A stretch of DNA of 64,000 nucleotides from an uncultured Gammaproteobacteria bacterium (lineage in GTDB: Bacteria > Patescibacteriota > Microgenomatia > Levybacterales > GWA1-39-11), in NCBI GenBank assembly GCA_964409875.1, contig CAYPEN010000003.1, positions 64,557 to 128,556 of the forward strand. The letters are read 5' to 3'. Shown here piece by piece: positions 19,947 to 36,034 of this stretch (its first letter is position 1; every line of letters begins with the position of its first letter). The notes under the pieces were generated by a model. The model saw nothing but the letters and a program-made list of their open reading frames with translations. It made no database searches and had not been told where the DNA came from. The translations under genes were made by a program, and so were the position numbers.

Positions 19947-21251
19947 CTACTCTTCAATATCATCTTCAGGGTCGTACGGTTCATCGTTCACTGGTTTTAT
20001 CAAGAAGTCCTTCATATCCCTATGTCCGATAATGACCGGGTATTTAAGGTTTGACCTGTCTACAATAGAGACAACCGTATTTATCTTCTTCCCACCCAGC
20101 GTAAATGTTGTTTTGGCAGTTGGCCGGAAGCTTTCACCGCTGGCAGATTTCACAAAAACCTTCTCGGAAAGCACCTGCATCCCGAGAAGTTCGGCGAATT
20201 TTCTGTCAACCGATGTCCTGTATGCACCTGTATCAAGCTTTGCCTTGACGGTTATCGGTTCACCGTTCCGGTAAAATGTAACCTCCTGGATGATGGTAAG
20301 TATCTTGGGGGATATAGACACTTTCTCGGAAAAGCTTTCGGTAAAAAGGTTTTTGGCAATTTCTACACCTCTTTCAGGGGTGGGAGTAATAATGTTTTCA
20401 ACGCGCTCTAAGCGAGAGCGAAGAGATGAACGGTTGGCATTTTGAATAGAAAGTCCAGGACGTGCATTAACCTCTAAAACCATTGGCCCCTCTTTGCCAT
20501 CGAAAACAATGTCAATACCGGCGTAGCCAAGCCCTGTTATTTCTTGTGCACGGGAGGCAAGAAGCAGTACCTGTTCCCAGTCGGGAATTTTAATCCCACG
20601 GGTTTTTATTTTTGTAGTGGGGATATGCGAAATTGGCTGGTCATAGAGAATCGCATTGGTCGTAATGCCCGTTCTTATATCGATTCCAAATCCTATTGCG
20701 CCCTGGTGAAGATTTGCTTTTCCGTGAGATTCTTCGGTTGAGAGCCTCATCATAGCCATAACGGGAATTTTGTTGAATGTTATGACTCTAATGTCGGGAA
20801 TGCCTACTCCCGTTAATTTCTTGAAAAATGGATGCGGATGAAGACGCTCCTCAATAAAAGCGTTATCGGGCAAAAATTTAAGTGAATAAGCTCCTTCAAG
20901 GATATCAAGAATATGGGATTCAAGTTGTTTGACAGTGTACGTTTGACCACTTGCTGTTGTTGCTACATTGTTCTCCCATTTTCTGATGGGAAGAATTCCG
21001 GATCCTGCATATCCTCTGGCTGGTTTTATGACAAAACCCCTTGTTGGAAGGTCACGCCATTCATAGTTTTTGATGGAATCTCTATCATAGAAAATTGAAA
21101 ACAAATTGGGCGTTTTTATCCCATTTTGTATCAAGACACTTTTCATCAATAATTTATCGTCAGCTATTTTTTTTGCTGCCGGTGGATTGTATCGTCTGAT
21201 GTATAAAAAATTCCGGGCGTTCATTCCCAGAATGTTTCTACTTACTGGCAT
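19947..21251 (-). CDS. ATP-grasp (RimK/alpha-L-glutamate ligase-like) protein fused to a C-terminal retropepsin-like aspartic protease domain (DUF785-like)
   Basis: N-terminal ~300-aa ATP-grasp (RimK-related). C-terminal KAKLDTGAYRTSVD carries the DTGA retropepsin signature, normally found in a separate partner protein. Confidence 0.7.
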   Translation of the reverse strand: MPVSRNILGMNARNFLYIRRYNPPAAKKIADDKLLMKSVLIQNGIKTPNLFSIFYDRDSIKNYEWRDLPTRGFVIKPARGYAGSGILPIRKWENNVATTASGQTYTVKQLESHILDILEGAYSLKFLPDNAFIEERLHPHPFFKKLTGVGIPDIRVITFNKIPVMAMMRLSTEESHGKANLHQGAIGFGIDIRTGITTNAILYDQPISHIPTTKIKTRGIKIPDWEQVLLLASRAQEITGLGYAGIDIVFDGKEGPMVLEVNARPGLSIQNANRSSLRSRLERVENIITPTPERGVEIAKNLFTESFSEKVSISPKILTIIQEVTFYRNGEPITVKAKLDTGAYRTSVDRKFAELLGMQVLSEKVFVKSASGESFRPTAKTTFTLGGKKINTVVSIVDRSNLKYPVIIGHRDMKDFLIKPVNDEPYDPEDDIEE

Positions 21252-22158
21252 GGCGGATTATAGAGGAAAACCTGAAATATTCCATAAGTCGTAATCCAAA
21301 GTAGCGGCCAACAATAATATTAAGAGGAATAAGTACCAGAATGAATTCAGGATAAAGAAGAATGGTGTTTCTTAGGTGGGTCGAGGAGAGAAGTAAAAAT
21401 CCCAGGATTCCAATAGCAAAAGTTACCATTGAAATTATTATCATTTCCTGTGCACTTCTTTCTTGCTGAACTGATATTATTTGTTCTGACAAAAGAATCA
21501 GAAGTAGCACCGGGAAAATGGAAAGCTGCTTTACGACGAGAATGCCTGCCATTGCGCTGACAGTCAGCGTTAAGAAAAGAAAGATGGAAACTATGAACAT
21601 TGAAAACGCCATTTTAGGCAACTGCATAATGCGGACTTTTTTGAGGAGTATGCGTGCGATAGTTGATGAGAAAATAATTGTTGCCAATAGGATAAGCCCT
21701 GCTGTTATTCCGGTTGAAAGCAGTGTGATGGAGAGTGCAACAGGTACGAGCATGCCGATGCTGGGAAGACCGATGACATGCCGTATAAAAGCAATAATTG
21801 TTGCAAGCATCGGGAGAAGCAGGATAAGGATTACTGTTCTTGATGGAACACCTGCCTTGACCGAGGCTTGGACAAGGAACGCCAAAATATTCCATCCATT
21901 GAGCTTGTCTGCAGGGCGCTGCTTGAAGAGAGCAAGCGCCTGCTCATCTTCCGGTCCTTCTGGCCGCGTGACATCCTGCTGTTGAATTTTTGCAATTTCT
22001 GCTGCTTCTTTTGCGGAGGCTGAAGCATTTGCTGAATCTGTCGCTGTTGCGACCGAAGGTGGATTTGGGAGCACATTGAATATATCTTGCGCCTGAACAT
22101 TTTTGACGAAGAAAGCAAAAAGAATAATAAAAAAGAGGCTTAAGAGAGTAAATTTCAT
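21238..22158 (-). CDS. Signal-peptide plus multi-TM (about 7 TM) membrane protein, partner of the ATP-grasp/protease gene
   Basis: Signal peptide MKFTLLSLFFIILFAFFVKNVQA, then a low-complexity extracellular segment and multiple TM helices. Overlaps the downstream ATP-grasp gene by 14 nt. Confidence 0.6.
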   Translation of the reverse strand: MKFTLLSLFFIILFAFFVKNVQAQDIFNVLPNPPSVATATDSANASASAKEAAEIAKIQQQDVTRPEGPEDEQALALFKQRPADKLNGWNILAFLVQASVKAGVPSRTVILILLLPMLATIIAFIRHVIGLPSIGMLVPVALSITLLSTGITAGLILLATIIFSSTIARILLKKVRIMQLPKMAFSMFIVSIFLFLTLTVSAMAGILVVKQLSIFPVLLLILLSEQIISVQQERSAQEMIIISMVTFAIGILGFLLLSSTHLRNTILLYPEFILVLIPLNIIVGRYFGLRLMEYFRFSSIIRHASK

Positions 22159-22195
22159 ACGTTTTATAGTATCAAATAAGCAAGTTGAGTTCAAC

Positions 22196-24031
22196 TTATG
22201 AGCGACGCGCTTGTATTTTGCGCTCGGTTGCAGAAAGGTATTTTTTCCGGAGGCGTATATTTTGCGGAGTTACCTCCAATAATTCGTCTGAATTGATAAA
22301 GTCTAATGCTTGTTCAAGCGACAATTCGGTAGGTGTATCAATTTGAACAGCAATATCAGATGTAGATGAGCGGATATTGGTCATTTTTTTGCCTTTCGTG
22401 ACATTTATTTCCATATCATGCTCTCTTGTCGAAATTCCAATTATCATGCCCTCATAGACAGGGGTATTAGGTTTAATAAATAAAGTTCCTCTTTCCTGTG
22501 CGTTTTCAAGTCCGTATGAGAGGGCAGTACCTGAGTCAAAAGAAATAAGCACTCCGGGCCGTGCATCTTCAACACTTGCTGCATCTTCTTTTGGAAAATA
22601 TCCCATAAAGAATGTGTTTAGTTCGACAGTGCCACGTGTTTTGGTAAGTAAAACGTTTCTGACCCCGAGCAGATTTTTACTCGAAACTTTATACACAAAC
22701 CGGGTTACATCTCCCGGTTCTTGCGTCATGTTTATCATGGTAGCCTTTCTTTTGGCAAATTCCTCAGATATAACCCCTATATAGTCTTTCGCAACATCAA
22801 TTGTCACTTCCTCAAATGGCTCACAGGTAACGCCGTCAATAGTCTTATAAATTACCTGTGGTTTTGAAATCTCAAGCTCAAATCCTTCACGCCTCATTGT
22901 TTCGATAAGAACGGCAAGGTGGAGTTCTCCCCGTCCTGAAACTGCAAAATTTGACGATGTGCTATCTTGTTCAATTTTGAGCCCAAGGTTTGTTTCTTTT
23001 TCTTTGAGTAGTCTCTCTTTGATTTGAGATGAGGAGAATAGTTTGCCTTCCTTTCCCAAGAATGGACTGGTGTTAGGCCCAATAGTAATTCTAATGGTAG
23101 GGTCTTCAACATGAATTTTTGGAAGGCTTTCAGGAGTTGCTGGGTCGGTAACGGTTTGACCTATGGTAAGCTCAGGGATTCCGGCAATGGCAACTATGTC
23201 TCCTGAAGAGACCTCATCTACCTCAACGCGGTCCAGCCCAACACTGGTGAACAATTTTTGTACTCTGCTTGTTGTAAGTACTTTCCCTTCATCAACCAAA
23301 GAGACCATATCTCCTTTTTTAAGCTTTCCACGGGTAACAGCTCCGATGCAAATTTTGCCCACATGGAGGTCTGTGTCTAAGGTAGAAATCAGCATTTGAA
23401 AAGGCTTGTCTTCATCTTTTACACTGTTAGGGATTTCATTTACTATTGCTTCAAAAAGAGGAGTTAAGTCACCCGGAGTATCTTCAGTGTAATTTTGAGG
23501 TAGTGTATCGAATGCTTTTCCGTCTCGTCCGACCGAATACAGCGTTTTGAAATTCAAATGGTCATCGTGAGTTGCCAGTTCCAAAAATAACCCTTCTGTC
23601 TCTTCAATAATTTCCAGGGGTCGTGCGTCTTTTTTGTCAATTTTATTTATAAGAAGAATGATTTTTAAGTGCTGCTCCAATGCCTTTTTTAGTACAAATT
23701 TGGTTTGTGGAAGAGGACCTTCGACTGCATCAACAAGAAGAATAGCTCCGTCGGCCATATTGAGGATTCTCTCTACTTCTCCTCCGAAATCTGCGTGACC
23801 GGGAGTATCGATGATATTAATTTTTACATCTTTGTATTTGACAGAGTTATTTTTAGACAAAATGGTGATGCCTTTTTCACGCTCAAGATCATTTGAGTCC
23901 ATGATGAGAGTCTCACTCATTTCCTTCTGATTGTCCCGGAAGGTGTGGGTTTGCTTGAGCAATGAATCCACGAGAGTAGTCTTCCCGTGGTCAACGTGGG
24001 CAATAATAGCAATATTCCTTATATTATTCAT
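22196..24031 (-). CDS. typA: Translational GTPase TypA/BipA
   Basis: GTPase motifs AHVDHGKTT and DTPGH with EF-G-like domain architecture; 611 aa. Confidence 0.95.
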   Translation of the reverse strand: MNNIRNIAIIAHVDHGKTTLVDSLLKQTHTFRDNQKEMSETLIMDSNDLEREKGITILSKNNSVKYKDVKINIIDTPGHADFGGEVERILNMADGAILLVDAVEGPLPQTKFVLKKALEQHLKIILLINKIDKKDARPLEIIEETEGLFLELATHDDHLNFKTLYSVGRDGKAFDTLPQNYTEDTPGDLTPLFEAIVNEIPNSVKDEDKPFQMLISTLDTDLHVGKICIGAVTRGKLKKGDMVSLVDEGKVLTTSRVQKLFTSVGLDRVEVDEVSSGDIVAIAGIPELTIGQTVTDPATPESLPKIHVEDPTIRITIGPNTSPFLGKEGKLFSSSQIKERLLKEKETNLGLKIEQDSTSSNFAVSGRGELHLAVLIETMRREGFELEISKPQVIYKTIDGVTCEPFEEVTIDVAKDYIGVISEEFAKRKATMINMTQEPGDVTRFVYKVSSKNLLGVRNVLLTKTRGTVELNTFFMGYFPKEDAASVEDARPGVLISFDSGTALSYGLENAQERGTLFIKPNTPVYEGMIIGISTREHDMEINVTKGKKMTNIRSSTSDIAVQIDTPTELSLEQALDFINSDELLEVTPQNIRLRKKYLSATERKIQARRS

Positions 24032-24045
24032 ATTAAAATTTTGCC

Positions 24046-24090
24046 GTTATATGAATGTAGCCTTAAAATTTTCAAATGAAACATTCATAT
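24046..24090. promoter_or_regulatory. 12-bp inverted repeat (TTATATGAATGT...ACATTCATATAA) in the typA/greA divergent region
   Basis: Perfect inverted repeat with a ~21-nt spacer. Possible operator or RNA hairpin. Confidence 0.4.
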
Positions 24091-24339
24091 AATAGCGATG
24101 TTACGTATTTGATTGTTCATATTAGCGTTAAAAAAGACACGCGGGCAAACGTGTCATCCTATGAAGCTGCACTTTAGTGCATCTTCTAGCTCAGCTTTTC
24201 TGCATGTGCTCATCATGTCCAACATTAGTTTGCAAAAGCAATTCGAAGGACAAAAATAAACCACGATATAACTCGTGGTTAATATCACATGCTATAGGTT
24301 CTATTATATCAGAAATAGGGTATAATAGCTACTAATTAT

Positions 24340-24798
24340 ATGAAACAAATTAAACGTATCCCGGTCACAAAGGAGGGGTTCGAAAAACTCCAAAATGAGC
24401 TCAAAAGACTGCAAGCCGAGCGTCCAACAGCTGTCAAAACGCTTGCCGAGGCTAGAGCTATGGGAGACCTTTCAGAAAATGGGCTTTACACAGCAGCCAA
24501 AGCACGGCTTCGCTCGATTGATAACGAAATGTTTCGCCTTGAAATTCAGATAAAGCTTGCTGATATTCGCGAATCGGACAACAGAACAGTCGGCATCGGT
24601 TCAAAAGTTGAGGTTTCTCAAGAAGGGGCAAAAACAACCTATTACATAGTGGGTGATTATGAGGCAAATCCTTTAGAGAGAAAAATTTCCCAGCATTCGC
24701 CTCTCGGACGGGTTTTGATAGGGAAAAAAGCAGGAGATACCGTTCAATTTGAAGCTCCAAAGGGCATAATTTCCTACAAAATAGAAAAAGTTTCTTAG
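24340..24798 (+). CDS. greA: Transcription elongation factor GreA
   Basis: 152 aa with an N-terminal coiled coil and a C-terminal FKBP-like domain. A TATAAT -10 element lies at 24321-24326. Confidence 0.9.
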   Translation: MKQIKRIPVTKEGFEKLQNELKRLQAERPTAVKTLAEARAMGDLSENGLYTAAKARLRSIDNEMFRLEIQIKLADIRESDNRTVGIGSKVEVSQEGAKTTYYIVGDYEANPLERKISQHSPLGRVLIGKKAGDTVQFEAPKGIISYKIEKVS

Positions 24799-24813
24799 TG
24801 TTATACTCTTTGT

Positions 24814-25365
24814 GTGTCACGAAGAAAAGTTAACCTAATAGCCTCAATTTTATTATTCCTCGCCTTTTTTGGTTATTCATCCTACAAACAATATTATCCT
24901 TCAAAAAAAGTTCTTTCACTTCAGGAACAAAAGCAAACAACGACGCAAACACAGGTAGTAAAAATAATTGACGGAGATACTATTGAAGTGCTGATTGATG
25001 GGAAAAAGGAAAAAGTACGCGTTCTCGGAATAAATACCCCCGAAACCGTCGACCCTAGGCGTCCTGTTGAATGTTTTGGCAAAGAAGCTTCAGATAAGGC
25101 AAAAAGCCTGTTGTCTAACCAATCGGTTCGTTTGGAGTCTGACCCGACACAGAATGACCGCGATAAATACGGCAGGCTCTTGCGGTATGTTTTTCTCTCT
25201 GACGGTACCGATTATGGACTCACCATGATAAAAGATGGATATGCGTATGAATATACATACGAAATTCCGTATAAATTCCAAAAAGAATATAAAAAAGCCC
25301 AAAGTGAGGCAGAAAATAGACAGGAGGGATTATGGTCTAGTGCTACGTGTAAAGGGAATGAATAG
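24814..25365 (+). CDS. Thermonuclease (staphylococcal nuclease-like), membrane-anchored
   Basis: SNase fold motifs (VIDGDTIEV...RVLGINTPE...RLLRYVF...DGYAYEY) and an N-terminal TM helix. Confidence 0.85.
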   Translation: MSRRKVNLIASILLFLAFFGYSSYKQYYPSKKVLSLQEQKQTTTQTQVVKIIDGDTIEVLIDGKKEKVRVLGINTPETVDPRRPVECFGKEASDKAKSLLSNQSVRLESDPTQNDRDKYGRLLRYVFLSDGTDYGLTMIKDGYAYEYTYEIPYKFQKEYKKAQSEAENRQEGLWSSATCKGNE

Positions 25366-25367
25366 TG

Positions 25368-25592
25368 CTATTCTGAAAGTAACACAGCTTCGTATCCGGT
25401 TTTTTTGACAGTTTCAAGAAGAGTATTTGTGTCGACTTTTCCATCTTCAAATTCAACCTCAGTTATCTGTTTTGCGTAGCTTGTTTGGGCTTTTTTTACT
25501 CCCTCTACATCTTCAAGATCAAAATCTATGTTCATCGCACATGATGAACAGTGCATGCCCGTAATTTTCAATTTCTTTGTCACATTGCTCAT
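25368..25592 (-). CDS. copZ: Copper chaperone CopZ (HMA domain)
   Basis: GMHCSSC metal-binding motif; 74 aa. Confidence 0.85.
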   Translation of the reverse strand: MSNVTKKLKITGMHCSSCAMNIDFDLEDVEGVKKAQTSYAKQITEVEFEDGKVDTNTLLETVKKTGYEAVLLSE

Positions 25593-26749
25593 ATTACTTC
25601 AATCACCCCCCGGTACATCCCCATTGCGCAGGTGAATGGGATTCTCCCTGCCTCTGTTGGTGTAAAAGTTATGGTTTGAGTTTCGTTTGCGGCAAGATTG
25701 CGGGCAATGCCAAGAGAGGGAATTCGGAAAGCAGATGAACAGCTGTAAGCATCAATACTCTTAAGGGTAAGGGTAACCGTTTCACCTTTTTTGACACGGA
25801 TATAATTTGGGGAATAGCCCGAAGCGGTGATTTCAATAGTTGGACTTTGATTAATCGGAATTGTCTGTTGTACGTTTATCTGATTTGAAGAGGGAAGTTT
25901 TATCTTTTCACCAATTGCCTGCAAAGTTATCGGTGAGCCAAAAGCGGTAAGCGACCCATTAATTGCGCTAATTCCAAGATAGATAACAATAACTGCCGCA
26001 ATTTTGAAAAATTTTGTCTTGAATGACTCACCCAAAAGTGAAGTTACTGCTCCAATTCCAAAAAAGAGAGGTGTAGTCCCTAAAATAAATGCTGCCATGA
26101 TGAGACCTCCCATAAATACATTAGAGCTACTGATAGCCAATGCTTCCATAGCAAGGGTCGTTCCACAGGGGATAAATATGGTCATTGCCCCAAGCAAAGC
26201 CGGCGCAAAGAAGTCTTTGGACTTTGATTGGTTGCGGACAAGCCGGGTTAAGAACCGTGGAGGCTGGATAATGACGTACCGAAAAATAGGATGGATATTA
26301 AGTAAATTCATGGCAACAAGCACCATATAGACACCGGCTGCAAGTTGCATGAAGGCTTGAACTTTCCCGCCGATATTTAATGCCCCGCCAAAAGCCCCCA
26401 ATACCAATCCTAGAGCGGTATAGGCAACCAGTTTTGAGGCAAGAAATGCACCGGTTGCGATGAGAGCATGTTTGCCGACTTTTGAAGTGCTTGTTTCCTC
26501 CCGTGCAGCAATTATCGAGGCTAAAAGTCCACCCTGAACTGCAAGGCACGTGAGTCCTCCAACGGTTAGTCCGGTGATAAATATGACAAAAAGATTGATA
26601 TTTCCCGCTTTTGGTACAGGTACGGAAGGGAGAGTAGTTTGCGAGGGAGAATTTTGTAGGGTCGCAAGCATGAAAAGTAGATAGCCAATGAGTACAACGG
26701 CGGCAGCAAATACCCACAAAAGCATTTTGAGTGTTGATTTGTTTTCCAT
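25589..26749 (-). CDS. Polytopic membrane permease-like protein with C-terminal cupredoxin-like domain
   Basis: About 8 TM helices (TauE/DsbD-like fold). The C-terminal ~100 aa resembles the downstream cupredoxin_1 domain (FTCAMGMYRGVIEV compared with [14 protein letters not shown]). Confidence 0.6.
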   Translation of the reverse strand: MENKSTLKMLLWVFAAAVVLIGYLLFMLATLQNSPSQTTLPSVPVPKAGNINLFVIFITGLTVGGLTCLAVQGGLLASIIAAREETSTSKVGKHALIATGAFLASKLVAYTALGLVLGAFGGALNIGGKVQAFMQLAAGVYMVLVAMNLLNIHPIFRYVIIQPPRFLTRLVRNQSKSKDFFAPALLGAMTIFIPCGTTLAMEALAISSSNVFMGGLIMAAFILGTTPLFFGIGAVTSLLGESFKTKFFKIAAVIVIYLGISAINGSLTAFGSPITLQAIGEKIKLPSSNQINVQQTIPINQSPTIEITASGYSPNYIRVKKGETVTLTLKSIDAYSCSSAFRIPSLGIARNLAANETQTITFTPTEAGRIPFTCAMGMYRGVIEVI

Positions 26750-26751
26750 AA

Positions 26752-28989
26752 TTATGTTCTTGAAAGCTTGAGCCTTTTTAAGAGCAGTGAATTACTCACA
26801 ACTGAAATAGAGCTTGAGGCCATCGCCGCTGAGGCGAATATCGGATTCAGCAACAGTCCAAAGAATGGATAAAGGGCTCCCATAGCAACTGGTATCAATA
26901 TAATATTATAGCCAAAAGCCCAGAAGAGGTTAAGCTTTATAGTTCTCATCGTCTTTTTTGAAAGTTTTATGGCAGATGCGACGGAACGAAGATCGCGGTT
27001 AATAAGTGTAATGCCGGCTGTTTCTATCGCAACATCAGTACCACTTCCCATCGCAATACCGATATCTGCAGCAGCAAGCGCAGGCGCGTCGTTTATCCCG
27101 TCTCCCACCATTGCAACAACTTTTCCTTCGTTTTGAATTTTTCTGACTTCCTGCTCTTTCTCTTCCGGCAGAACTTCCGACAGAACTCTTTTTATCCCCA
27201 GGCTTTGGGCGATAGCCTCAGCTGTTCTTTTGTTGTCTCCCGTCATCATCACTACCTCAATACCTTTTTTCGTAAGCTCGTTTATTCCTTCTCTAGCGCT
27301 TTCTTTAACGGTATCCATAACAGCAATAAGTCCAAGAAGAGTTGTTTCGAATGCCAAAAACATAACTGTTTTTCCCTCTCTTTCTAAATTTTCGACATTA
27401 TCCAGATAGTTTGCGACTTTGACGCCCATACTTTCCATCAGTTTTCTATTACCAAAAAACACTTGTTTCCCGCTTATGACTCCTTCTACCCCGTGTCCCG
27501 GAATTGCTTTGAATTTTTCAACCGGAAGAGAGGGGATATTGTCACTTTCTGCCTTTTTCACAATGGCCTCAGCAAGGGAGTGCTCAGACCCTTTCTCAAG
27601 AGACGAGGCAACGCGAAGAACTGTGTCGGGTGGTGCATCGTGCGTGGGGATGATGTCTGTAACCTCAGGCTTACCGTTTGTGAGGGTTCCTGTTTTGTCA
27701 AAAATGATGGCTTTTACTTTGTGTGCTATTTCAAGGCTTTGTGCGTCTTTGATGAGTATTCCGTTCTGCGCCCCAATACCTGTCCCCACCATGATAGCGG
27801 TGGGTGTTGCAAGACCCATTGCACACGGGCAAGCAATGATAAGTACAGCAACCGTATTAAGAAGGGCATAGAGAAAAGCCGGAGAAGGACCGAATACGTA
27901 CCAAACGGCAAACGTTGCAATAGAAAGCATGATTACGATAGGTACAAAATAGGAGGATATGGTATCGGCAACTCTTTGGATAGGCGCTTTTGAACCTTGA
28001 GCATTTTCAACCAGAGTTATTATTTGTGCCAACATTGTTTGTCCTCCTACTTTTTCGGCTCTATAGGTAAAAGTACCGGATTTATTAAGAGTTGCCCCTA
28101 CAACGTTGTCCCCCTGTGCTTTGTCAACAGGTATACTTTCTCCTGTTATCATAGACTCATCAACCGCCGACTCGCCTTCCAGTATAACTCCATCAACCGG
28201 TATTTTTTCTCCCGGCCTGACTCTTACCACGTCCCCGATGATAACTTCGCTTATGGGAATATCAATTTCCTTGTCATCACGCATGACCCGTGCAGTTTTT
28301 GCTTGAAGTGAGAGGAGTTTTTTGATGGCCTCCGACGTACCAGCCTTTGCTTTCGCTTCAAAAAATCTCCCCAGAAGTATTAGGGCTATTACAATTGTAG
28401 CAACATCAAAGTAGGGCATCGGCTCTATCCCGACAGCGCTTATGACTTTTGGCATCAACGTAACTAATACCGAATATGAAAATGCAGCGGTCGTACCGAT
28501 CGCAACAAGAGTATCCATATTTGCGCTTCTATGGCGAAGAGAGGGTATGGTTGCCTTATAAAAGGTAAGCCCTGGCCAGAATTGGACGATAGAGGCTAGG
28601 GCAAGTTGCAGATAAAAATTCTTAAGGAAAAAAGGTGCAAAATCAATAAGCCCAGGGAAGCTTCCCCACAGTATAAGTAGTCCTATCGTAAGACTCACGA
28701 TAACTTTTAGGCGGAGTGACTTCAGTTCCCTTGCCTTCTCTTCTTGCTCTTTTTTCTCATCAACTTTTTCCCCTTCAATCATTGCTGTGTATCCGACTTG
28801 GGCGACCGCTGACTCCATTTGTTTTGGAGTGCAGGCAGAATCGTCATAGTTGACGGTTGCTTTCTCGGTTGCGAGGTTAACAGTTGCCGATTCGACGCCG
28901 CTAACTTTTGTTAATGCCCGCTCGAGCACCCTGACGCAGGACGCGCAGTGCATGCCTTTTATTGGAAATGTTTTGGTGACTTGAGCCAT
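26752..28989 (-). CDS. copA: Copper-translocating P1B-type ATPase
   Basis: N-terminal HMA (GMHCASC), CPC motif in TM6, and DKTGTLT phosphorylation site. Confidence 0.95.
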
Positions 28990-28990
28990 A

Positions 28991-29368
28991 TCACTTTATG
29001 ATTATCTTCCCGTGATACATATTCATGCCGCACGAGTATTTGAATTCTCCTTTCTTTTGGGGTGTTATCTCAACGGTAACCGTTTCATTCAGAGGAAGAT
29101 ATTTCCTTATCTTCAAATCGCCGAGCACTACTTCCTCAAGGCAACCGCTCGAATCTTTTCTGATGAAATTTAGTTTCGTAGTTTTACCCTTCGGTATGAC
29201 GACCGCTTCAGGGTTATATCCTCCCTCAACAATAATATCAACAGACCCATTAGCCACAACTTCTCTTTGGTCTTTCATGAGAAAAAACCAGTGGACAAAG
29301 CCTATTCCTAAAATACTTCCTACCAAAACTAAGATTTTATCTATTGGCATATTAGTCACCGCATTCAA
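28991..29368 (-). CDS. Cupredoxin-like (cupredoxin_1) domain protein, membrane-anchored
   Basis: 125 aa with an N-terminal TM helix and the C-terminal motif SCGMNMYHG. Confidence 0.7.
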
Positions 29369-29888
29369 TACTTTCTTTTTCTTTTTTTTCTATATATTGT
29401 TTGCTAACCGCGTCTTTTTCATGGGTTGTGGAATTACTACCAAGAAGTATGACCATGCTTTCATAAGGAGTAATCCTGGTGTTCTGGAAATCCTTTACCT
29501 CTTTGCCATTTACATATGCCTTTGCCTTTGAGTAGTCAATGGGGTAGTGGATATTGGTAAAAAGGTCGCGCCAGTAAGCTTGTTCACGCTCGACGTGCAC
29601 GAGGTCACCAACCTGGTCATGAAGATGCGCCTTTTCGGCTTGTATATCCTCATCACTGTGATTTCCCTTCACATCATCGCAAGGTTTTACTCTCATATAC
29701 TTAAAATCTGAAAAGTCTATTTTTTTGTCGTTTTGGAAGACGACGAAGCCTGCGTGATAGTGGATTTCTTTTGGTGTAGTGAGAAATTTGTATCCAAAAA
29801 ATCCCCCAATAACTATTCCTATCAGGAGTAACGTCCCAAAAACTGCAATAATATTCCTTTTTTTTAATAACCCCATTCTTTGTACCAT
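29352..29888 (-). CDS. Hypothetical membrane-anchored His-rich protein in the copper operon
   Basis: N-terminal TM helix and several His-containing motifs. No family recognised. Confidence 0.5.
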   Translation of the reverse strand: MVQRMGLLKKRNIIAVFGTLLLIGIVIGGFFGYKFLTTPKEIHYHAGFVVFQNDKKIDFSDFKYMRVKPCDDVKGNHSDEDIQAEKAHLHDQVGDLVHVEREQAYWRDLFTNIHYPIDYSKAKAYVNGKEVKDFQNTRITPYESMVILLGSNSTTHEKDAVSKQYIEKKEKESIECGD

Positions 29889-30505
29889 AGGCGCATTTGA
29901 TTTATCTCCTTTGTCTGTGAATCAATAATGTTTTGGGCAAGCTTTTTCATTTCCGGTCGTATTGTTCCGTTCTTAAGCATTGTTGCCATCATAACTGCCA
30001 TTTGGTGATGCGGAATCATCTCCTCTATAAATTCTTTATCAAAGTTTTCTGCCGATTTGAGTGACTCTGCGTCGATATCGCTTCCCATCATGCCCATGTG
30101 CATAGATCCGTTTCCTTGCATCATTCCATGCGTATCCATCACATCATTGTCTTCCGGTGGCTGCTTCCCGAACCATTCCTCATACCATCCTTTCATTTGT
30201 TCAATTTCTTTTGATTGGGCAGTGATGATATTTTGGGCGAGAGTTTTGATTTCACTGTGAGTTGCTTTTTCAAGAGCTGTTGTACTCATTGTAATTGCAT
30301 CTTTGTGATGAGGGATCATCTGTTCTATAAAATGGCTATCGAGTGCATCGGAATTCGTAATTCTATTTTCCTGTACAGTATTTTTTCCCCACATCATTTG
30401 TCCAAGGGAAGAATAACGACCGGAGGGTGGGGTTGGCAAAATAAGCCAAACAGCAAGGCCTCCAAGAATTGCGCCAATCACCCCATATGTTAGTTTTTTA
30501 TCCAT
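29864..30505 (-). CDS. DUF305 domain protein (copper-resistance associated)
   Basis: Two DUF305 repeats (IEQMIPHHKDAI... and IEEMIPHHQMAV...). Confidence 0.8.
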   Translation of the reverse strand: MDKKLTYGVIGAILGGLAVWLILPTPPSGRYSSLGQMMWGKNTVQENRITNSDALDSHFIEQMIPHHKDAITMSTTALEKATHSEIKTLAQNIITAQSKEIEQMKGWYEEWFGKQPPEDNDVMDTHGMMQGNGSMHMGMMGSDIDAESLKSAENFDKEFIEEMIPHHQMAVMMATMLKNGTIRPEMKKLAQNIIDSQTKEINQMRLWYKEWGY

Positions 30506-30507
30506 AT

Positions 30508-30783
30508 TTACTTATTGGTTCTTTTAAAAAGTGTTACGAGTTCTTCGGTTGCTTTTTCACTTTCACCGTTATGGAATTGGTGTGCAACGTGAGTTGAGAG
30601 ATGACGTTCCAAAAGAACCGTGTCAAGGCTTTTTAAGGAATTTTGTATAGCAAGGCTTTGGTTGAGGACGTCGACGCAATACACGTCATCCGTTATCATC
30701 TTTGAAAGTCCTTCCAGCTGGCCTTTGATGATGTTGAGGCGCTTCTGGGCTTTAACTTTGCCGTCTTCGTAGTGAGATTTCAT
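30508..30783 (-). CDS. csoR: CsoR/RcnR family metal-sensing transcriptional repressor
   Basis: 91-aa DUF156 fold with Cys-His-Cys ligand positions (YCVDV...HLSTHV). Confidence 0.8.
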   Translation of the reverse strand: MKSHYEDGKVKAQKRLNIIKGQLEGLSKMITDDVYCVDVLNQSLAIQNSLKSLDTVLLERHLSTHVAHQFHNGESEKATEELVTLFKRTNK

Positions 30784-30793
30784 TGTCTTATCG

Positions 30794-30812
30794 TATACCC
30801 CCCAGGGGTATA
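30794..30812. promoter_or_regulatory. Candidate CsoR operator: perfect 8-3-8 inverted repeat TATACCCC-CCA-GGGGTATA immediately upstream of csoR
   Basis: GC-rich core with AT-rich flanks, typical of CsoR operators. Located about 10 bp from the csoR start codon. Confidence 0.65.
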
Positions 30813-30971
30813 TGTCAAGACACGAAAAGTTTAGATATGAAAAATCAGGTGGAAATTTGAGATTGTAAATTTGTGACCAGGATATCCAGAATCTCGAACC
30901 AGAACAAATGCTTCTTGATTGGTACCAGATTTACAAAAAGTTAAAGTTATTTGTAAAAATTCTGAAGAGAT

Positions 30972-31514
30972 TTAAATTGACTCTAATTTTTCTTTAGAAT
31001 CTCTTTCAAGTTTTTCTCTTTGCTTCTCTGTTAATCCCATGCTTTTTGCAAAAAAATCATTTAAGCCTTCGTATACGATTTCTAATAACTGTAGCGTCTC
31101 TAGTTCTTTTGCGGGATTATTTCTATATTCCCTAATTTTGTCTTGATATGCACTCGGATGAGAAAAAATAACTCTTAAATCATTTAATTTGTACATTTTC
31201 CCAATTAATGCAGATTCTAAGAGATCTGATTCCTGGACTGACTTAACCTTCTTCGCAAAATCAGTGCTTGCGGCTAGTTGAGTAAATCTTTGCCTAAACT
31301 CTAATCGTTCTTCATCTGAAATAGACGTGTTATTAATACTGCTCAAAAGGTGGTTTGCCAAAATTATTTCTAAAGAAACTTCAGTTCTTGCATGAACGTG
31401 AAAAATCTTATGTCTAATCTCCTTTGTTTCTTCATCAGTATAAAGTGGGTCAATATCTTCCCAATTCTGGAGTTTGTTTAGCAGTTCTTGAATTTGCTCT
31501 TCTAGAGGGACCAT
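30972..31514 (-). CDS. Hypothetical protein (possible HEPN-like Rx4H motif)
   Basis: 180 aa, alpha-helical. Contains an RHKIFH motif. No family recognised. Confidence 0.5.
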   Translation of the reverse strand: MVPLEEQIQELLNKLQNWEDIDPLYTDEETKEIRHKIFHVHARTEVSLEIILANHLLSSINNTSISDEERLEFRQRFTQLAASTDFAKKVKSVQESDLLESALIGKMYKLNDLRVIFSHPSAYQDKIREYRNNPAKELETLQLLEIVYEGLNDFFAKSMGLTEKQREKLERDSKEKLESI

Positions 31515-31522
31515 CTGTGTGA

Positions 31523-31540
31523 TTTCCTAAACTAAACGTT
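31523..31540. terminator. 18-nt perfect palindrome AAACTAAACGTTTAGTTT between tRNA-Lys and the downstream gene
   Basis: The sequence is its own reverse complement. Possible terminator hairpin or binding site. Confidence 0.4.
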
Positions 31541-31547
31541 TAGTTTG

Positions 31548-31619
31548 TGATCCGGCAGGGACTCGAACCCTGAACCCAAAGCTTAAAAGGCTTTTGCTCT
31601 ACCATTGAGCTACCGGACC
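31548..31619 (-). tRNA. tRNA-Lys (TTT)
   Basis: Minus-strand cloverleaf: acceptor GGTCCGG/CCGGATC, anticodon loop CTTTTAA. Confidence 0.9.
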
Positions 31620-31809
31620 GAACGTAGTGAGGGACGGGAGCTCAATGGCGAACGAAGTCAAGCTTGCTTGACGAAGTGTCTCATTGAGCAGCATGTACCC
31701 AAAACTCCGACCCTAATTTTACCAAATTCAACCTCATATACGCAAATGGGGCGTCAATTTGACAAAAAGTGATACTTTTACCATACTAAAGAAGAAGGGA
31801 GGTGAGATT

Positions 31810-32466
31810 ATGGATAGTGTAAATAACGTGCTTATTAACACTCTTAACGGCAGTGTTGCAACAATAATTTCCTTCATTCCCCGCTTCCTTTCAGGCTTCA
31901 TCATACTTCTCATCGGTATCATCATCTCGACTTTTTTACGTCAAATCGTCAAAGAAGGACTCAGAATGGTGAAGTTTGAGGCTTTTTTGAAAAGGTATGG
32001 GGTACCCGAATCAAAAGAAACGGCCGATTGGAGCGCGATTCTTTCAGAAATTGTCAGGTGGTTTGTCATTATCGTTTTTCTGGTCCCAACGGCTCAAGTC
32101 TGGGGATTGGGGAAATTTGTTGATGTCCTCAATGGGCTCTTACTGTATCTTCCGAATGTCTTTATAGCAGTACTCCTGCTTTTGGTGGGATTTGTTGTCT
32201 CAAAATTGGTATACGAGCTTTTAGTAGCATCGGTTAGGGGGTTATCGCGTGATAGTGCAAAAAGCATTGCAATGGTCGGTCGCTGGGCTGTTTTGGTCTT
32301 TGTGTTTCTTGTGGTTCTCAATCAACTTGGTATTGCATCAGACCTCATCCGTATACTTTTTGGAGGGCTTGTGGCAATGGTTGCATTAGCTGGAGGACTC
32401 GCATTTGGACTTGGAGGAAAAGATGCGGCACGAGATATCATTGAGAAATTGAGAAAAAAACTTTGA
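31810..32466 (+). CDS. Conserved TM-helix repeat membrane protein (MscS-associated TM_helix family-like)
   Basis: Repeated amphipathic TM segments. The ORF extends to 31759, but the start is probably at MDSV. Confidence 0.55.
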   Translation: MDSVNNVLINTLNGSVATIISFIPRFLSGFIILLIGIIISTFLRQIVKEGLRMVKFEAFLKRYGVPESKETADWSAILSEIVRWFVIIVFLVPTAQVWGLGKFVDVLNGLLLYLPNVFIAVLLLLVGFVVSKLVYELLVASVRGLSRDSAKSIAMVGRWAVLVFVFLVVLNQLGIASDLIRILFGGLVAMVALAGGLAFGLGGKDAARDIIEKLRKKL

Positions 32467-32468
32467 AT

Positions 32469-32498
32469 TTGAGTTGAGGGTAGTATTTTTAGTATAAT
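32469..32498 (+). promoter_or_regulatory. Promoter for tRNA-Glu (TTGAGT-18-TATAAT)
   Basis: Hexamers by eye; the tRNA begins 18 nt after the -10. The tRNA-Arg promoter uses the same TTGAGT -35. Confidence 0.5.
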
Positions 32499-32516
32499 AA
32501 GGCCTGCGAAGTAAAA

Positions 32517-32590
32517 GGCCCCATCGTCTAGTGGCCTAGGACGTCGGGCTTTCATCCCGAAAATCGCGGGTTCGACTCCCGCTGGGGTCA
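32517..32590 (+). tRNA. tRNA-Glu (TTC)
   Basis: Cloverleaf: acceptor GGCCCCA/TGGGGTC, anticodon loop CTTTCAT. Confidence 0.9.
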
Positions 32591-32668
32591 CAAATTCTGT
32601 TATTTACACTAAAGAATATTATTTCCCCCAGATTCAACCCTTAAGTTTACAATACTTTATCATTTCAA

Positions 32669-32980
32669 TCAGTAATTCACAGTAGGAGTTGCTGTCGGTT
32701 GGACGGTTGTTGGTGTTGGCGTCAGCGACACCATGGGTGATACGGTTGGACTTAGCTTTGTGTTCCCTCGCGTCGGTGCAACGTTATTAACATTGCCAGG
32801 TCCGCCTCCTATCCCGGGTTGTAATCCTGACCTAGAATTGTTGTTGGTGGTATACGCATTTGCCCACCAGCCGGCAAAGAATGCTACAACAACTAAAAGG
32901 AGCGGTACGAGCCACGAAAATGCATTTGAGTCATTTCTTCGTACATCTCTCGACACTACATCGTCATCATAAACTGCCAT
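32669..32980 (-). CDS. Small hypothetical membrane protein with Thr/Pro-rich tail
   Basis: One TM helix and a low-complexity C-terminus. Confidence 0.4.
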   Translation of the reverse strand: MAVYDDDVVSRDVRRNDSNAFSWLVPLLLVVVAFFAGWWANAYTTNNNSRSGLQPGIGGGPGNVNNVAPTRGNTKLSPTVSPMVSLTPTPTTVQPTATPTVNY

Positions 32981-33148
32981 AATTTTCACCCCCTTTGTTT
33001 TGTATACTGGCACATCAATTGCTGATTCATATTAAGAAGTAGTAAAAGGTAAGAAAGAAAGAGAGATTTGCTGAGACGCCTAATTTAGGCGGATTGAAAA
33101 TAGATGGGTATATAATGGTTAGGTAAAGCGATTAGAAGGAGAATTATC

Positions 33149-33673
33149 ATGGCTGATACAAAAAAAGAATTACTACCCATAACAATTAGAAGAAGTGTTG
33201 CGCTTTTTGTCTTACGTGTAATACTTTTGGAGTTGATTTTTGAGATAATTTATCTTACATGGAGAACTATTATCCACTATCTGCCTATTCCGCTTGAAAC
33301 CGTAGTTACTCTGAATGGGGTTTCTCTCATAATTTTTTTCATTTTGGTAACACTAATCCAGAACATACTTCTTATTGTTATCGCCTTGAATTGGGTAAGT
33401 GATTATTACGAGATACGGGAAGATGAGGTGGCACATGTGAAAGGAATAGTTTCAAAAACAAGCAGGTCTTATCCGTACCATGATATTCAGTCCATCACGA
33501 TTCACCAAGGATTTATTGGACGCATATTTAATTACGGTGAGGTTAGCCTTTATATTCCCACATTAGGGCACGATTTGCATTTCAGGGAAGTATCAAGTCC
33601 CGAGCGGTTTGTGGAACTTGTAAAAAGCATTAGTCCGCAAATTGAAAGAGGAAAATACATCTTCAGACGCTGA
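33149..33673 (+). CDS. Bacterial PH-domain (YdbS/YdbT-like) membrane protein
   Basis: Two N-terminal TM helices plus a bPH_2-like C-terminal domain. Confidence 0.7.
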   Translation: MADTKKELLPITIRRSVALFVLRVILLELIFEIIYLTWRTIIHYLPIPLETVVTLNGVSLIIFFILVTLIQNILLIVIALNWVSDYYEIREDEVAHVKGIVSKTSRSYPYHDIQSITIHQGFIGRIFNYGEVSLYIPTLGHDLHFREVSSPERFVELVKSISPQIERGKYIFRR

Positions 33674-34022: not shown

Positions 34023-34202
34023 TTAGACGCTTGTGTGTTGTATGGTAGTCGAGGTTTTTTGCAATGACTCCATCATGTTGCGCTTTGTTTCCTCAAGATT
34101 CTGGGTATTAGAATCTGCCGCTTCTTGTAATGTTTTGGTTGTGATATTTTTTGGGTTGCCGTGGTCTTCATCCGGCATTCCGCATCCGCAATTCATACAC
34201 AT
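34023..34202 (-). CDS. Unannotated 59-aa Cys-rich small protein (MCMNCGCGMPDEDHG...) with a strong RBS
   Basis: GGAGGTG sits 7 nt upstream of the ATG at 34202. A cluster of 4 Cys in the first 8 residues. Below the 60-aa ORF-track cutoff. Confidence 0.55.
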   Translation of the reverse strand: MCMNCGCGMPDEDHGNPKNITTKTLQEAADSNTQNLEETKRNMMESLQKTSTTIQHTSV

Positions 34203-34333: not shown

Positions 34334-36034
34334 ATGAAAGAATTTGTTACAGGACAAGTCGAAAAACAACACGAGCAAGCATTTGGTAGAGTAGTTTCGC
34401 TTCAGGAAAAGCGAGGGATAGCTCCCATTCATGATCCATTCAAAAACGAATGGCAGGCTCTTTTGCCGGAAAAGCAATATGGGGATGTAACGCTTCCTTC
34501 TGCCAATGCTGCTTTTATTGCCTCATATAAAGATGCGCTTGCAAAGGGTAAATTTGAAGAGTTTAAAGAAAACATCCCTGAGTCAGATTTTTCGGGTATT
34601 TATAGGGTGAGGGCAGTTAACCCGACAAATGAGAAAGACAAAATTGCTGCGGCAAATTATTCGCCTGAGTCAATAGATAGTCTTGAAAAACGCCTGGCTG
34701 AATTTTTGAGGAAAATTGAAGGGTCGAATATAGCACCGGAGTATAAAGCCGAGTATAGAAAGAGAATTCAAAACGGCGAGATGCAGCATTTAAAAATGGC
34801 AAGAAACCTTGGTGCTGTTGAGTACACGATAGAACAAAAAATCCCTTCCGATTGGAGTAATTTTGTAGATTTAGAAAAAACGCTACAGCAAAAGACAATA
34901 GTACTTCCGTATGAGGATTTAGCACAAAAACTTTTGGAAAAAAGCAAAAAGTCAAAAGAGCATCCCGTAAGAACAATGAAGGATGCGTTAAACTTTTGGG
35001 AATTGACTGATGCTGAAAAGCAGGAAGTTGGATATGATAATGTGACGGATGATACGAAGACTCTTTCCAATAAGCAAACGGTAGCGTTGCTTAATATTGT
35101 GCTTAAGCGTTATAAGCTATTTGACTGGAAAAGCGTTGCAGACCCCGCAGTTACTGCAATAAATGATTCGTCACGTGAAAAAGAAATGCAGGTGCCTTCA
35201 GACCGGGAATTTGACAGTGCGGATGCGATATTTATCCCCGGACATGAGACCGTCCATTCAGTATCGGTTGAAAACGGGCAGAGGCAAGAATTTGGACTTT
35301 TGTGGGAAGGAGTTTTTGATTATTTGAAAACCGAAGAGGGGAAAGCATCTGCAAATGAACTAATATTAGGTCTTTCAAACATCGACTCTCGCCAAGTTAA
35401 GCTTTATGGAAGGTATATGGCAGTTGCTATGGCACTTAAAGCAGATGTAAAAGACGGAAAGCCGCAACCGCGCTTTTCTACACAGAAGATTTACGACACA
35501 CTGAAGGATTACGGAGTGCGCGAGTTGGATGCGAAAGACATAGTGTGGAGGATAATGCGTGGCACAACCTTAAGGCACAAAGGGGTGATGATTCCAGTTG
35601 ATGATGGAAAAAGGAATATCGTAGAAATTCCTTCGGCAGAATGTTTTGTAAAGGACGCTTTATATTTTGAAGGACAAAGACAAGTCTTTGAGTGGTTGAG
35701 GGCGAGAATGCCGGTTAAAGCTGGACACAGGGCATCCGTCACAACAAAAACCGAAGACTTCTCTGATAAAACCCTTGCTCGAGTAGGGCTTAAGGCGCAT
35801 GAAATGGAAGAGGGTAAGGTAGTGAATTTAAAGTACCGCGAGGCGAAAAAACAATACCCGTCATGGGTTAAAAAAGGAAGAGAAACACTTTTAACGCTTA
35901 ATAATTTGACCGCCGCAGGCAAAATCAGGCTTGATATGTTAACGGAAAGTTCTTTTTGGGAGCAGAATCTGAAGTTTGGCAGGCAGAACGGACAAATAGA
36001 TTTACAAGATATTTTTACTCCCTCAAAAACTTAA
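34334..36034 (+). CDS. Large orphan soluble protein (566 aa) with an HETVH (HExxH) motif
   Basis: No signal peptide and no TM helices. Highly charged. No family recognised. Confidence 0.6.
   Translation: MKEFVTGQVEKQHEQAFGRVVSLQEKRGIAPIHDPFKNEWQALLPEKQYGDVTLPSANAAFIASYKDALAKGKFEEFKENIPESDFSGIYRVRAVNPTNEKDKIAAANYSPESIDSLEKRLAEFLRKIEGSNIAPEYKAEYRKRIQNGEMQHLKMARNLGAVEYTIEQKIPSDWSNFVDLEKTLQQKTIVLPYEDLAQKLLEKSKKSKEHPVRTMKDALNFWELTDAEKQEVGYDNVTDDTKTLSNKQTVALLNIVLKRYKLFDWKSVADPAVTAINDSSREKEMQVPSDREFDSADAIFIPGHETVHSVSVENGQRQEFGLLWEGVFDYLKTEEGKASANELILGLSNIDSRQVKLYGRYMAVAMALKADVKDGKPQPRFSTQKIYDTLKDYGVRELDAKDIVWRIMRGTTLRHKGVMIPVDDGKRNIVEIPSAECFVKDALYFEGQRQVFEWLRARMPVKAGHRASVTTKTEDFSDKTLARVGLKAHEMEEGKVVNLKYREAKKQYPSWVKKGRETLLTLNNLTAAGKIRLDMLTESSFWEQNLKFGRQNGQIDLQDIFTPSKT

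Follow-up and report, generated by a model that had tools for sequence, protein, structure and literature searches.

A 64-kb stretch of a metagenome contig (hereafter the window, a term that always designates this whole stretch) carries a copper-resistance operon of seven genes, in which two cupredoxin modules, one of them fused to a membrane protein, and an uncharacterised anchored protein accompany a CsoR-family regulator, a CopA pump and a CopZ-like chaperone. This locus raises the question of whether the operon was recently acquired as a genomic island beside a tRNA-Lys gene, as proposed by a first-pass annotation of this DNA, or belongs to the ordinary equipment of its lineage, and of what its less familiar members may contribute to copper handling. 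Our results make it likely that the locus is a lineage-typical, CsoR-controlled copper operon, mosaic in its content, rather than an island attached to a tRNA. They also disclosed three noteworthy features: CupA-type domains predicted on both sides of the membrane, a cross-phylum module associating a DsbD_2::cupredoxin fusion with an HMA protein, and a Patescibacteria-restricted His/Cys protein family.

Probable inheritance and mosaicism of the copper operon

The open reading frame listing confirmed seven tightly packed minus-strand genes running from 30783 to 25368, and Pfam and NCBIfam matched the domains expected from the first-pass annotation. These are, in order, csoR (30508–30783, 91 amino acids [aa]), a DUF305/CopM-family gene (29864–30505, 213 aa), the gene of the membrane-anchored, uncharacterised 178-aa protein (29352–29888; 174 aa from an alternative start at 29876), a CupA-type cupredoxin gene, cupA (28991–29368; 125 aa, or 119 aa from an alternative start), copA (26752–28989, 745 aa), the gene of a DsbD_2::cupredoxin fusion (25589–26749, 386 aa) and a copZ-like HMA gene (25368–25592, 74 aa). 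Their junctions range from a 2-nucleotide (nt) gap to a 25-nt overlap, with 4 nt shared by the fusion gene and copZ, which is consistent with a single transcription unit, and a convergent SNase gene lies downstream, its end 2 nt from that of copZ. The operon is a real copper-detoxification set, of a kind that is standard for this tiny-genome group. Close homologues all belong to Patescibacteria, chiefly to Microgenomates lineages such as Levyibacteriota, Gottesmanbacteria and Roizmanbacteria, and the succession of csoR, variable small anchored proteins, cupA, copA, fusion and copZ recurs in many Microgenomates contigs. What had been described as unusually elaborate for a reduced genome is therefore the norm of the lineage.

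The island claim could be judged against a sister genome that is represented by four independent assemblies. Its csoR, 178-aa protein gene, copA, fusion and copZ adjoin SNase, greA, typA, a 7TM gene, a RimK-like gene and L19, and the operon consequently occupies the same slot as in the window, contrary to what the island claim had led to expect. Amino acid identities between the two genomes reach 95% for TypA and the RimK-like protein, 93% for the 7TM protein, 88% for GreA and 75% for SNase in the flank, and 90% for CsoR, 79% for CopZ, 78% for the 178-aa protein and 75–77% for the fusion in the operon; CopA shares only 48%. The sister site is devoid of DUF305, cupA, the tRNA and the 180-aa gene that neighbours the window operon, and its left flank is inverted. 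SNase itself was discarded as a synteny anchor, being uninformative: the 24 metagenome loci retrieved showed at most 61% identity, and none contained greA, typA or cop genes.

Nucleotide composition led to the same verdict on the island. Relative to the other genes of the window, the cop genes had z-scores of −1.7 to +1.5 for GC content at third codon positions (GC3), with csoR at +2.6, codon-usage divergences (Kullback–Leibler, KL) with z ≤ 0.44, and a tetranucleotide distance peaking at z = 1.8; they appear native, and the 180-aa gene is the sole deviant. No integrase, recombinase or transposase was detected among the Pfam families of the genes called in the ~18-kb source locus, no direct repeat of the tRNA 3′ end occurs in 24000–33200, and an Rfam scan of 24000–33500 returned two tRNAs only.

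Gene trees nevertheless disclosed a composite history. The fusion and copZ trees both join the window to its sister as mutual closest relatives, and the position of CopA conflicts with this: the window CopA shares a clade, at 66–71% identity, with CopAs that are linked to cupA in more distant Microgenomates, and the sister CopA groups with contigs devoid of cupA. The presence of cupA thus tracks one CopA clade. A distant Microgenomates contig (L025) displays the same order csoR, DUF305, 178-aa gene, cupA and copA, and another (L078) retains a 49-aa DUF305 remnant after csoR, which together indicate that the full architecture is old. The operon slot was therefore probably inherited, and the cupA–copA module, probably along with DUF305, exchanged or lost among lineages; cupA and copA would form a co-inherited chaperone–pump module, swapped within the operon frame. 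Most of the island claim thus falls, and what survives of it is the exchanged copA, the differences in DUF305 and cupA from the sister, the rearranged left flank and the foreign 180-aa gene. More broadly, operons of small genomes can be mosaic despite a native composition, and a search by composition only would not have revealed the exchange of copA.

CupA-type modules, pump and regulator

The free cupredoxin (Cupredoxin_1, PF13473, E = 6e-22) matched Streptococcus pneumoniae CupA (4F2E/2MRY; E = 6e-22), with its Cys and CGMNM motif aligned. Homology, Cys and CxMxM ligands (C76, C113, M115 and M117) and an N-terminal membrane anchor (a hydrophobic helix at residues 12–30), i.e. the features that characterize CupA, are all present. 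The C-terminal domain of the fusion (PF13473, E = 6.7e-16) matched both 4F2F, the cupredoxin-type metal-binding domain of pneumococcal CopA (4e-8), and 4F2E, CupA (7e-8). These two structures, along with a Bacillus anthracis Cupredoxin_1 protein, were the top Foldseek matches of the fusion AlphaFold2 (AF2) model, and the ligands C337, C374, M376 and M378 were invariant in 41 fusion homologues. Type 1 blue-copper electron carriers were rejected as an identity for the modules, as neither has the His-Cys-His-Met set and both display Cys…CxMxM; blue-copper proteins matched with E-values no better than 0.13, and red-copper nitrosocyanin reached 1.6e-4 for the fused domain. From these matches, the conserved ligands and the weak blue-copper scores, both modules are, as far as sequence tells, CupA-type Cu(I)-binding chaperone domains: the cupredoxin label is right as to the fold, and CupA-type is the more specific name.

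CupA has been described as a membrane-anchored chaperone facing the cytoplasm, found only in a few streptococci, that bears a high-affinity bis-thiolate site and a low-affinity Met-rich site and pairs with a cupredoxin-type domain of CopA (PMC7558416). In 11 CupA-like homologues, the lysines and arginines flanking the anchor helix number 11 on the N-terminal side and 25 on the C-terminal side, from which the free CupA-type domain is predicted to be cytoplasmic here too. In the window as in the pneumococcal copY-cupA-copA operon, the gene directly upstream of copA encodes a Cu(I) chaperone of cupredoxin fold, tethered to the membrane and with the same Cys…CxMxM ligands. The window operon differs in its regulator (CsoR family instead of CopY), in the N-terminal metal-binding domain of its CopA (a ferredoxin-like HMA domain instead of a cupredoxin domain), and in the addition of CopZ and of a second CupA-type domain, predicted outside the membrane on the DsbD_2 protein. 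The pairing with a cupredoxin-type CopA domain is thus not found, the window CopA having an HMA domain only, and the association of CupA with HMA-type CopA in Patescibacteria suggests that the cupredoxin–cupredoxin pairing rule is not general. Although described as limited to a few streptococci, and although not found in the sister genome, CupA is common across Patescibacteria, which makes CupA-type chaperones a frequent copper-handling part in a large uncultured radiation rather than a streptococcal oddity.

The pump itself is conventional. CopA scored 631.9 bits against TIGR01511 (cut-off 397), with an HMA domain (PF00403) at residues 7–67 (GMHCASC), and its translation displays the CPC, DKTGT, YN and MxxSS (MASSS) motifs of P1B-1 Cu(I) ATPases. 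CopZ (PF00403, E = 2.4e-11) presents an HMA fold with the MxCxxC motif as GMHCSSC; the CopZ models of NCBIfam reached at best 53 bits against a cut-off of 95, and the MerP and MerTP HMA models scored similarly.

Upstream of csoR, the best promoter-like site of 25000–32700 lies at 30790–30818 on the minus strand, with a −35 TTGACA (30818–30813), a 17-nt spacer and a −10 TACGAT (30795–30790), matching 10 of 12 positions. The csoR ATG at 30783 stands 7 nt beyond the −10, a distance suggesting that the transcript may be leaderless. Within the promoter spacer, an ATACCCC-N3-GGGGTAT box (30795–30811; ATACCCCTGGGGGGTAT) corresponds to ATACCCCnnnGGGGTAT, the CsoR-box consensus of Corynebacterium glutamicum (PMC5057107), which matched once in the window with 0 mismatches (chance expectation 0.08). 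CsoR (PF02583, E = 1.9e-21; 76.7 bits against a cut-off of 22.8) is accordingly a CsoR/RcnR-family repressor accompanied by a GC-tract inverted-repeat operator at its own promoter, as is characteristic of such repressors.

The metal ligands of the window CsoR, read from the alignment, are C36, H61 and H65 plus H4, i.e. an H-C-H-H fingerprint instead of the canonical C-H-C triad for Cu(I). The same set has been reported for the multi-metal, poorly selective CsoR of Thermus thermophilus and for Escherichia coli RcnR. This regulator type is common to the window, its sister and two other contigs, and the box lies 29 nt upstream of the start codon in all of the C-H-H-type csoR loci (sister, L005 and L023); most other Microgenomates cop operons, including many of the present type, use a canonical C-H-C CsoR. 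The locus shares with the csoR-copZ-copA operons of Bacillus subtilis, Mycobacterium tuberculosis and C. glutamicum an autoregulated CsoR-family repressor, CopZ, a P1B-1 CopA and an operator equal to the ATACCCCnnnGGGGTAT consensus, and with T. thermophilus its ligand set, and differs from these operons by four extra genes, which encode the CopM/DUF305 protein, the 178-aa protein, CupA and the DsbD_2::CupA-type fusion.

The DsbD_2 fusion and the anchored accessory proteins

The fusion consists of an extra N-terminal transmembrane helix, a six-helix DsbD_2 core (PF13386, E = 2.8e-29) and the C-terminal CupA-type domain. It had been annotated as a permease, and it can now be specified as a DsbD_2/COG2836-type six-helix core preceded by one helix. 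Its AF2 model, with a predicted local distance difference test score (pLDDT) of 75, shows a beta sandwich after seven membrane helices, of which the fifth is kinked at P194–C195; a hydropathy-window method of calling helices was set aside as too crude in favour of the AF2 secondary structure. The core carries two invariant Cys, C68 (GGLTCLAVQGG) in core helix 1 and C195 (IPCGTT) in core helix 4, the arrangement by which DsbD and CcdA are recognized. An hhalign comparison with annotated CcdA gave a non-significant probability of 0.1, a Foldseek search of the PDB matched no solved membrane protein, and Pfam detected no thioredoxin-fold gene in the operon, the conserved partner of the fusion being an HMA protein.

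More than 3,322 homologues of the fusion were found, and its relatives take three forms: the six-helix core plus cupredoxin (~340 aa), the same with an extra N-terminal helix (386 aa, as in the window), and a form with an additional N-terminal HMA domain without signal peptide (465–469 aa). An HMA domain without signal peptide would be cytoplasmic, and seven helices would then place the fused cupredoxin outside; the Lys/Arg-rich loops lie on the side of the N-terminus, in agreement with this topology, and the fused CupA-type domain is accordingly predicted, from this model, to be extracytoplasmic. An apparent N-terminal cupredoxin in one locus (L013) was rejected as spurious, the match being one between membrane helices. 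A small HMA gene follows the fusion in every locus with sufficient sequence, even in those relatives whose fusion already includes an HMA domain. As a separate observation, the N-terminal HMA-like domain of long-form fusions (P0145, P0152 and P0176) often lacks the CxxC Cys (e.g. GMATLNEE), and the genes concerned still precede a separate, intact HMA gene.

The fusion is also found well beyond Patescibacteria, as tblastn recovered full-length copies, 31–41% identical and annotated as 'sulfite exporter TauE/SafE family protein', on plasmids of Deinococcus, Chlorohelix, Mycolicibacterium, Tsukamurella and Streptomyces. On a plasmid of Deinococcus sp. QL22 it is followed by an HMA gene, with merB and a MerR regulator close by, and on that of Tsukamurella the order is P-type ATPase, fusion, HMA, merA and multicopper oxidase. 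The pair formed by the fusion and the HMA gene hence recurs in Patescibacteria, Deinococcus and Actinomycetota, as a cross-phylum two-gene module of copper and mercury loci that has no assigned mechanism.

Two known systems offer partial parallels. A metagenomic regulon study (PMC4938975) has assigned COG2836 proteins associating HMA and DsbD_2 domains, by computational inference, to the CsoR regulon in Firmicutes of the gut. The COG2836/PF13386 proteins share with the fusion the same membrane core with invariant Cys and an HMA domain either fused or encoded next door, and those of Firmicutes (PMC4938975) bear DUF2318 where the window protein has a CupA-type cupredoxin. Literature searches on PF13386/COG2836 proteins and on copper in Patescibacteria retrieved no functional study. 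The other parallel is the MerP–MerT–MerA (NmerA) mercury relay, which follows a common logic of an outside metal-binding domain, a membrane Cys pair and an inside HMA domain; plasmid-borne copies of the module also lie close to merA and merB. The two systems have unrelated folds in both the membrane protein and the external domain, and NCBIfam found no MerT or MerP family match for the operon proteins beyond a generic HMA similarity, which makes the likeness one of analogy and not of membership.

Two further anchored proteins may act outside the cell. The DUF305 protein (PF03713, E = 3.7e-44), with two repeats, an N-terminal anchor and a Met/His-rich loop, scored 114.1 bits against the NCBIfam CopM model NF049983 (cut-off 90). 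In six DUF305 proteins the Lys and Arg flanking the anchor are distributed as 12 on the N-terminal and 5 on the C-terminal side, predicting an extracytoplasmic domain. Like Synechocystis CopM, it thus passes the CopM model and would lie outside the membrane; unlike it, it is anchored through its N-terminal helix and is encoded in a CsoR-regulated operon, Synechocystis CopM being regulated by a two-component system. Such anchoring is found in a patescibacterial group that probably has no outer membrane.

The 178-aa protein had been described as His-rich, an enrichment that is modest (9 His in 178 residues); its distinctive trait lies rather in an invariant set of five His, one Asp and two Cys, the alignment giving H43, H45, C70, H88, H90, D95, H98, W106 and C176 as invariant. 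At least 165 homologues were found, all unnamed and nearly all from Patescibacteria, and a profile search of 1.84 billion representatives delineated 484 clusters at 50% identity. Neither Pfam, NCBIfam nor PADLOC matched the protein, and when the PDB was searched by profile and 31 family members were scanned with Pfam, no match emerged either. Its AF2 model (pLDDT 88) shows an anchor helix plus a small alpha/beta domain, whose best Foldseek match in the PDB was a partial, non-significant beta-grasp (E = 0.26). The short MKKK-type N-terminal tails that precede the anchor and the two invariant Cys suggest that the domain is probably outside.

Gene neighbourhoods provided solid support for a link between this family and metal handling. 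Across 60 loci, its neighbours include copA/HMA in 22, cupredoxin in 16 (often as the adjacent gene), csoR in 11, DUF305 in 6, ZIP in 5, DUF5676 in 7 and a Cys-rich membrane protein without Pfam match in 7, in addition to DsbA-like genes. We propose that the protein is an extracytoplasmic metal-binding accessory; with a confident model, it represents a compact target and a candidate new metal-binding family. It was also observed that the slot between csoR and cupA in Microgenomates holds varied small anchored proteins (DUF3105, DUF2933, DUF5676, DUF305 and the 178-aa family), as in L076/L077 (3303–4313), L078 (1737–2000) and several other loci of the L0xx series, a variety that suggests an interchangeable set of extracytoplasmic accessories.

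A coherent working of the operon can be proposed from these elements. The CsoR-family repressor (H-C-H-H) would bind the box of its own promoter and let go upon metal binding, as known for its family. In the cytoplasm, CopZ, through its HMA domain, and the membrane-tethered CupA-type chaperone would take up Cu(I) and hand it to CopA for export, and outside, CopM/DUF305, the His/Cys 178-aa protein and the fused CupA-type domain would handle exported or incoming copper. The presence of one invariant Cys in each of helices 1 and 4 and the obligatory HMA partner lead us to favour, tentatively, a DsbD_2 core that passes a thiophilic metal ion across the membrane, with the HMA protein as its cytoplasmic and the CupA-type domain as its external partner, following a logic like that of MerP–MerT–NmerA and possibly in either direction. 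More speculatively, the DsbD_2::CupA-type fusion and its HMA partner might constitute an undescribed thiolate relay for Cu(I), or for Hg(II) on some plasmids, and the 178-aa protein might found a Patescibacteria-restricted family of extracytoplasmic metal-binding proteins.

Alternative explanations and surroundings of the operon

That the whole block from tRNA-Lys to copZ is a recently integrated genomic island appears highly improbable. The tRNA does present its 3′ end to the block, the 180-aa gene beside it is foreign in composition and sparsely distributed, the left flank differs in arrangement from that of the sister, and copA, cupA and DUF305 differ between the two genomes; yet the sister operon in the same slot, with csoR, the 178-aa gene, fusion and copZ 75–90% identical, largely refutes a recent insertion, and the native composition of the cop genes, the lack of integrase or transposase in ~18 kb and of a tRNA-derived direct repeat, and the wide occurrence of the architecture in the lineage all argue in the same direction. 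Another alternative concerns the fusion, whose core could be a CcdA/DsbD-like thiol-disulfide electron conduit keeping the Cys pair of the external CupA-type domain reduced, with the reduced domain trapping the Cu(I) released by CopA or reducing Cu(II) outside. We regard it as possible though doubtful: the DsbD_2 match, the invariant Cys of core helices 1 and 4 (the latter kinked), the alignment of IPCGT with the PCIGP of CcdA in the best, non-significant hhalign path, the bis-thiolate site expected for the external domain from CupA homology, and the occasional proximity of the 178-aa family to CcdA-like, DsbA-like and thioredoxin genes are consistent with a conduit, and are countered by a conserved partner, fused in some relatives, that is HMA and not thioredoxin, by the non-significant similarity to CcdA and by the plasmid loci in which the module adjoins merA and merB, a context that would call for a metal importer.

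A last alternative bears on the substrate, which would consist mainly of a broader range of thiophilic or borderline metals (Ag, Hg, Zn, Cd) rather than of copper alone, with a poorly selective sensor and accessories binding other metals. The P1B-1 Cu(I) signature motifs of CopA and its score above the TIGR01511 cut-off, the conserved CupA ligands, the passed CopM model and an operator that is a CsoR box make this unlikely, despite an H-C-H-H set shared with E. coli RcnR and the multi-metal T. thermophilus CsoR, the mercury genes next to the fusion and HMA pair in Deinococcus and Tsukamurella, and the ZIP zinc transporters adjoining the 178-aa family in 5 loci. Our preferred reading, i.e. a mosaic copper operon in which the DsbD_2 core relays a metal ion, has to accommodate several contrary points. 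The regulator deviates from the canonical C-H-C triad and bears an H-C-H-H set to which little selectivity has been ascribed in T. thermophilus, and the metal specificities of all of the operon proteins are deduced from sequence. CupA here meets an HMA-type CopA, which implies that the hand-off model of S. pneumoniae is not directly transferable. Topologies rest solely on helix counts and charge bias, and the fusion core shows neither significant CcdA similarity nor a match to a solved membrane protein, which makes both transport and electron transfer hypothetical. Finally, the cupA–copA exchange could have been a gain in the window or a loss in the sister.

Upstream of csoR and outside the operon, the 180-aa gene (30972–31514, minus strand) has the lowest GC3 of the region (0.272, z = −3.3) and a codon-usage KL z of +5.1, which make it the only compositionally foreign gene there. 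Its family is sparse, with 12 homologues among 5.8 billion sequences, and none of these adjoins cop genes, their surroundings being unrelated and including L19, RNase HII and NERD genes. The HEPN-like identity that had been suggested for it has as its sole basis an R114-x4-H119 motif, invariant in 11 aligned sequences along with RHK and R-x-E; it found no echo in Pfam, and only a weak PADLOC hit to 'Effector' (E = 0.012), the sole NCBIfam match being weak and unrelated (E = 0.0066). The tRNA-Lys(ttt) lies, as annotated, close to the operon at 31547–31619 on the minus strand (ARAGORN; Rfam 73 bits), its 3′ end facing the 180-aa gene. A 14-nt inverted copy of the tRNA-Lys 5′ part (CCATTGAGCTACCG / CGGGAGCTCAATGG; 31602–31648), found 19 nt upstream of the tRNA, could represent either a hairpin or a fragment of a tRNA, and ARAGORN and Rfam call nothing there.

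Other observations concern the surroundings at large. Metagenome-assembled genome records with clear Patescibacteria-type cop loci (L002, L006, L007, L010 and others) are often titled 'uncultured Gammaproteobacteria' or 'Pseudomonadales', titles that look unreliable as taxonomy. At 34023–34202 (minus strand), a 59-aa gene without Pfam match, whose product starts with MCMNCGCGMPDEDHG, displays a Cys-rich N-terminal motif that could bind metal. At 34334–36034 (plus strand), a 566-aa protein matched PF08014 (MATCAP) in Pfam, which we take to be a eukaryotic microtubule-associated tyrosine carboxypeptidase and hence an unexpected label for a Patescibacterium. On the other side of the operon, overlapping minus-strand genes at 19947–22194 encode a 7TM_transglut membrane protein and an ATP-grasp protein (RimK-like, ATPgrasp_ST), which are the 7TM and RimK-like proteins 93–95% identical in the sister genome.

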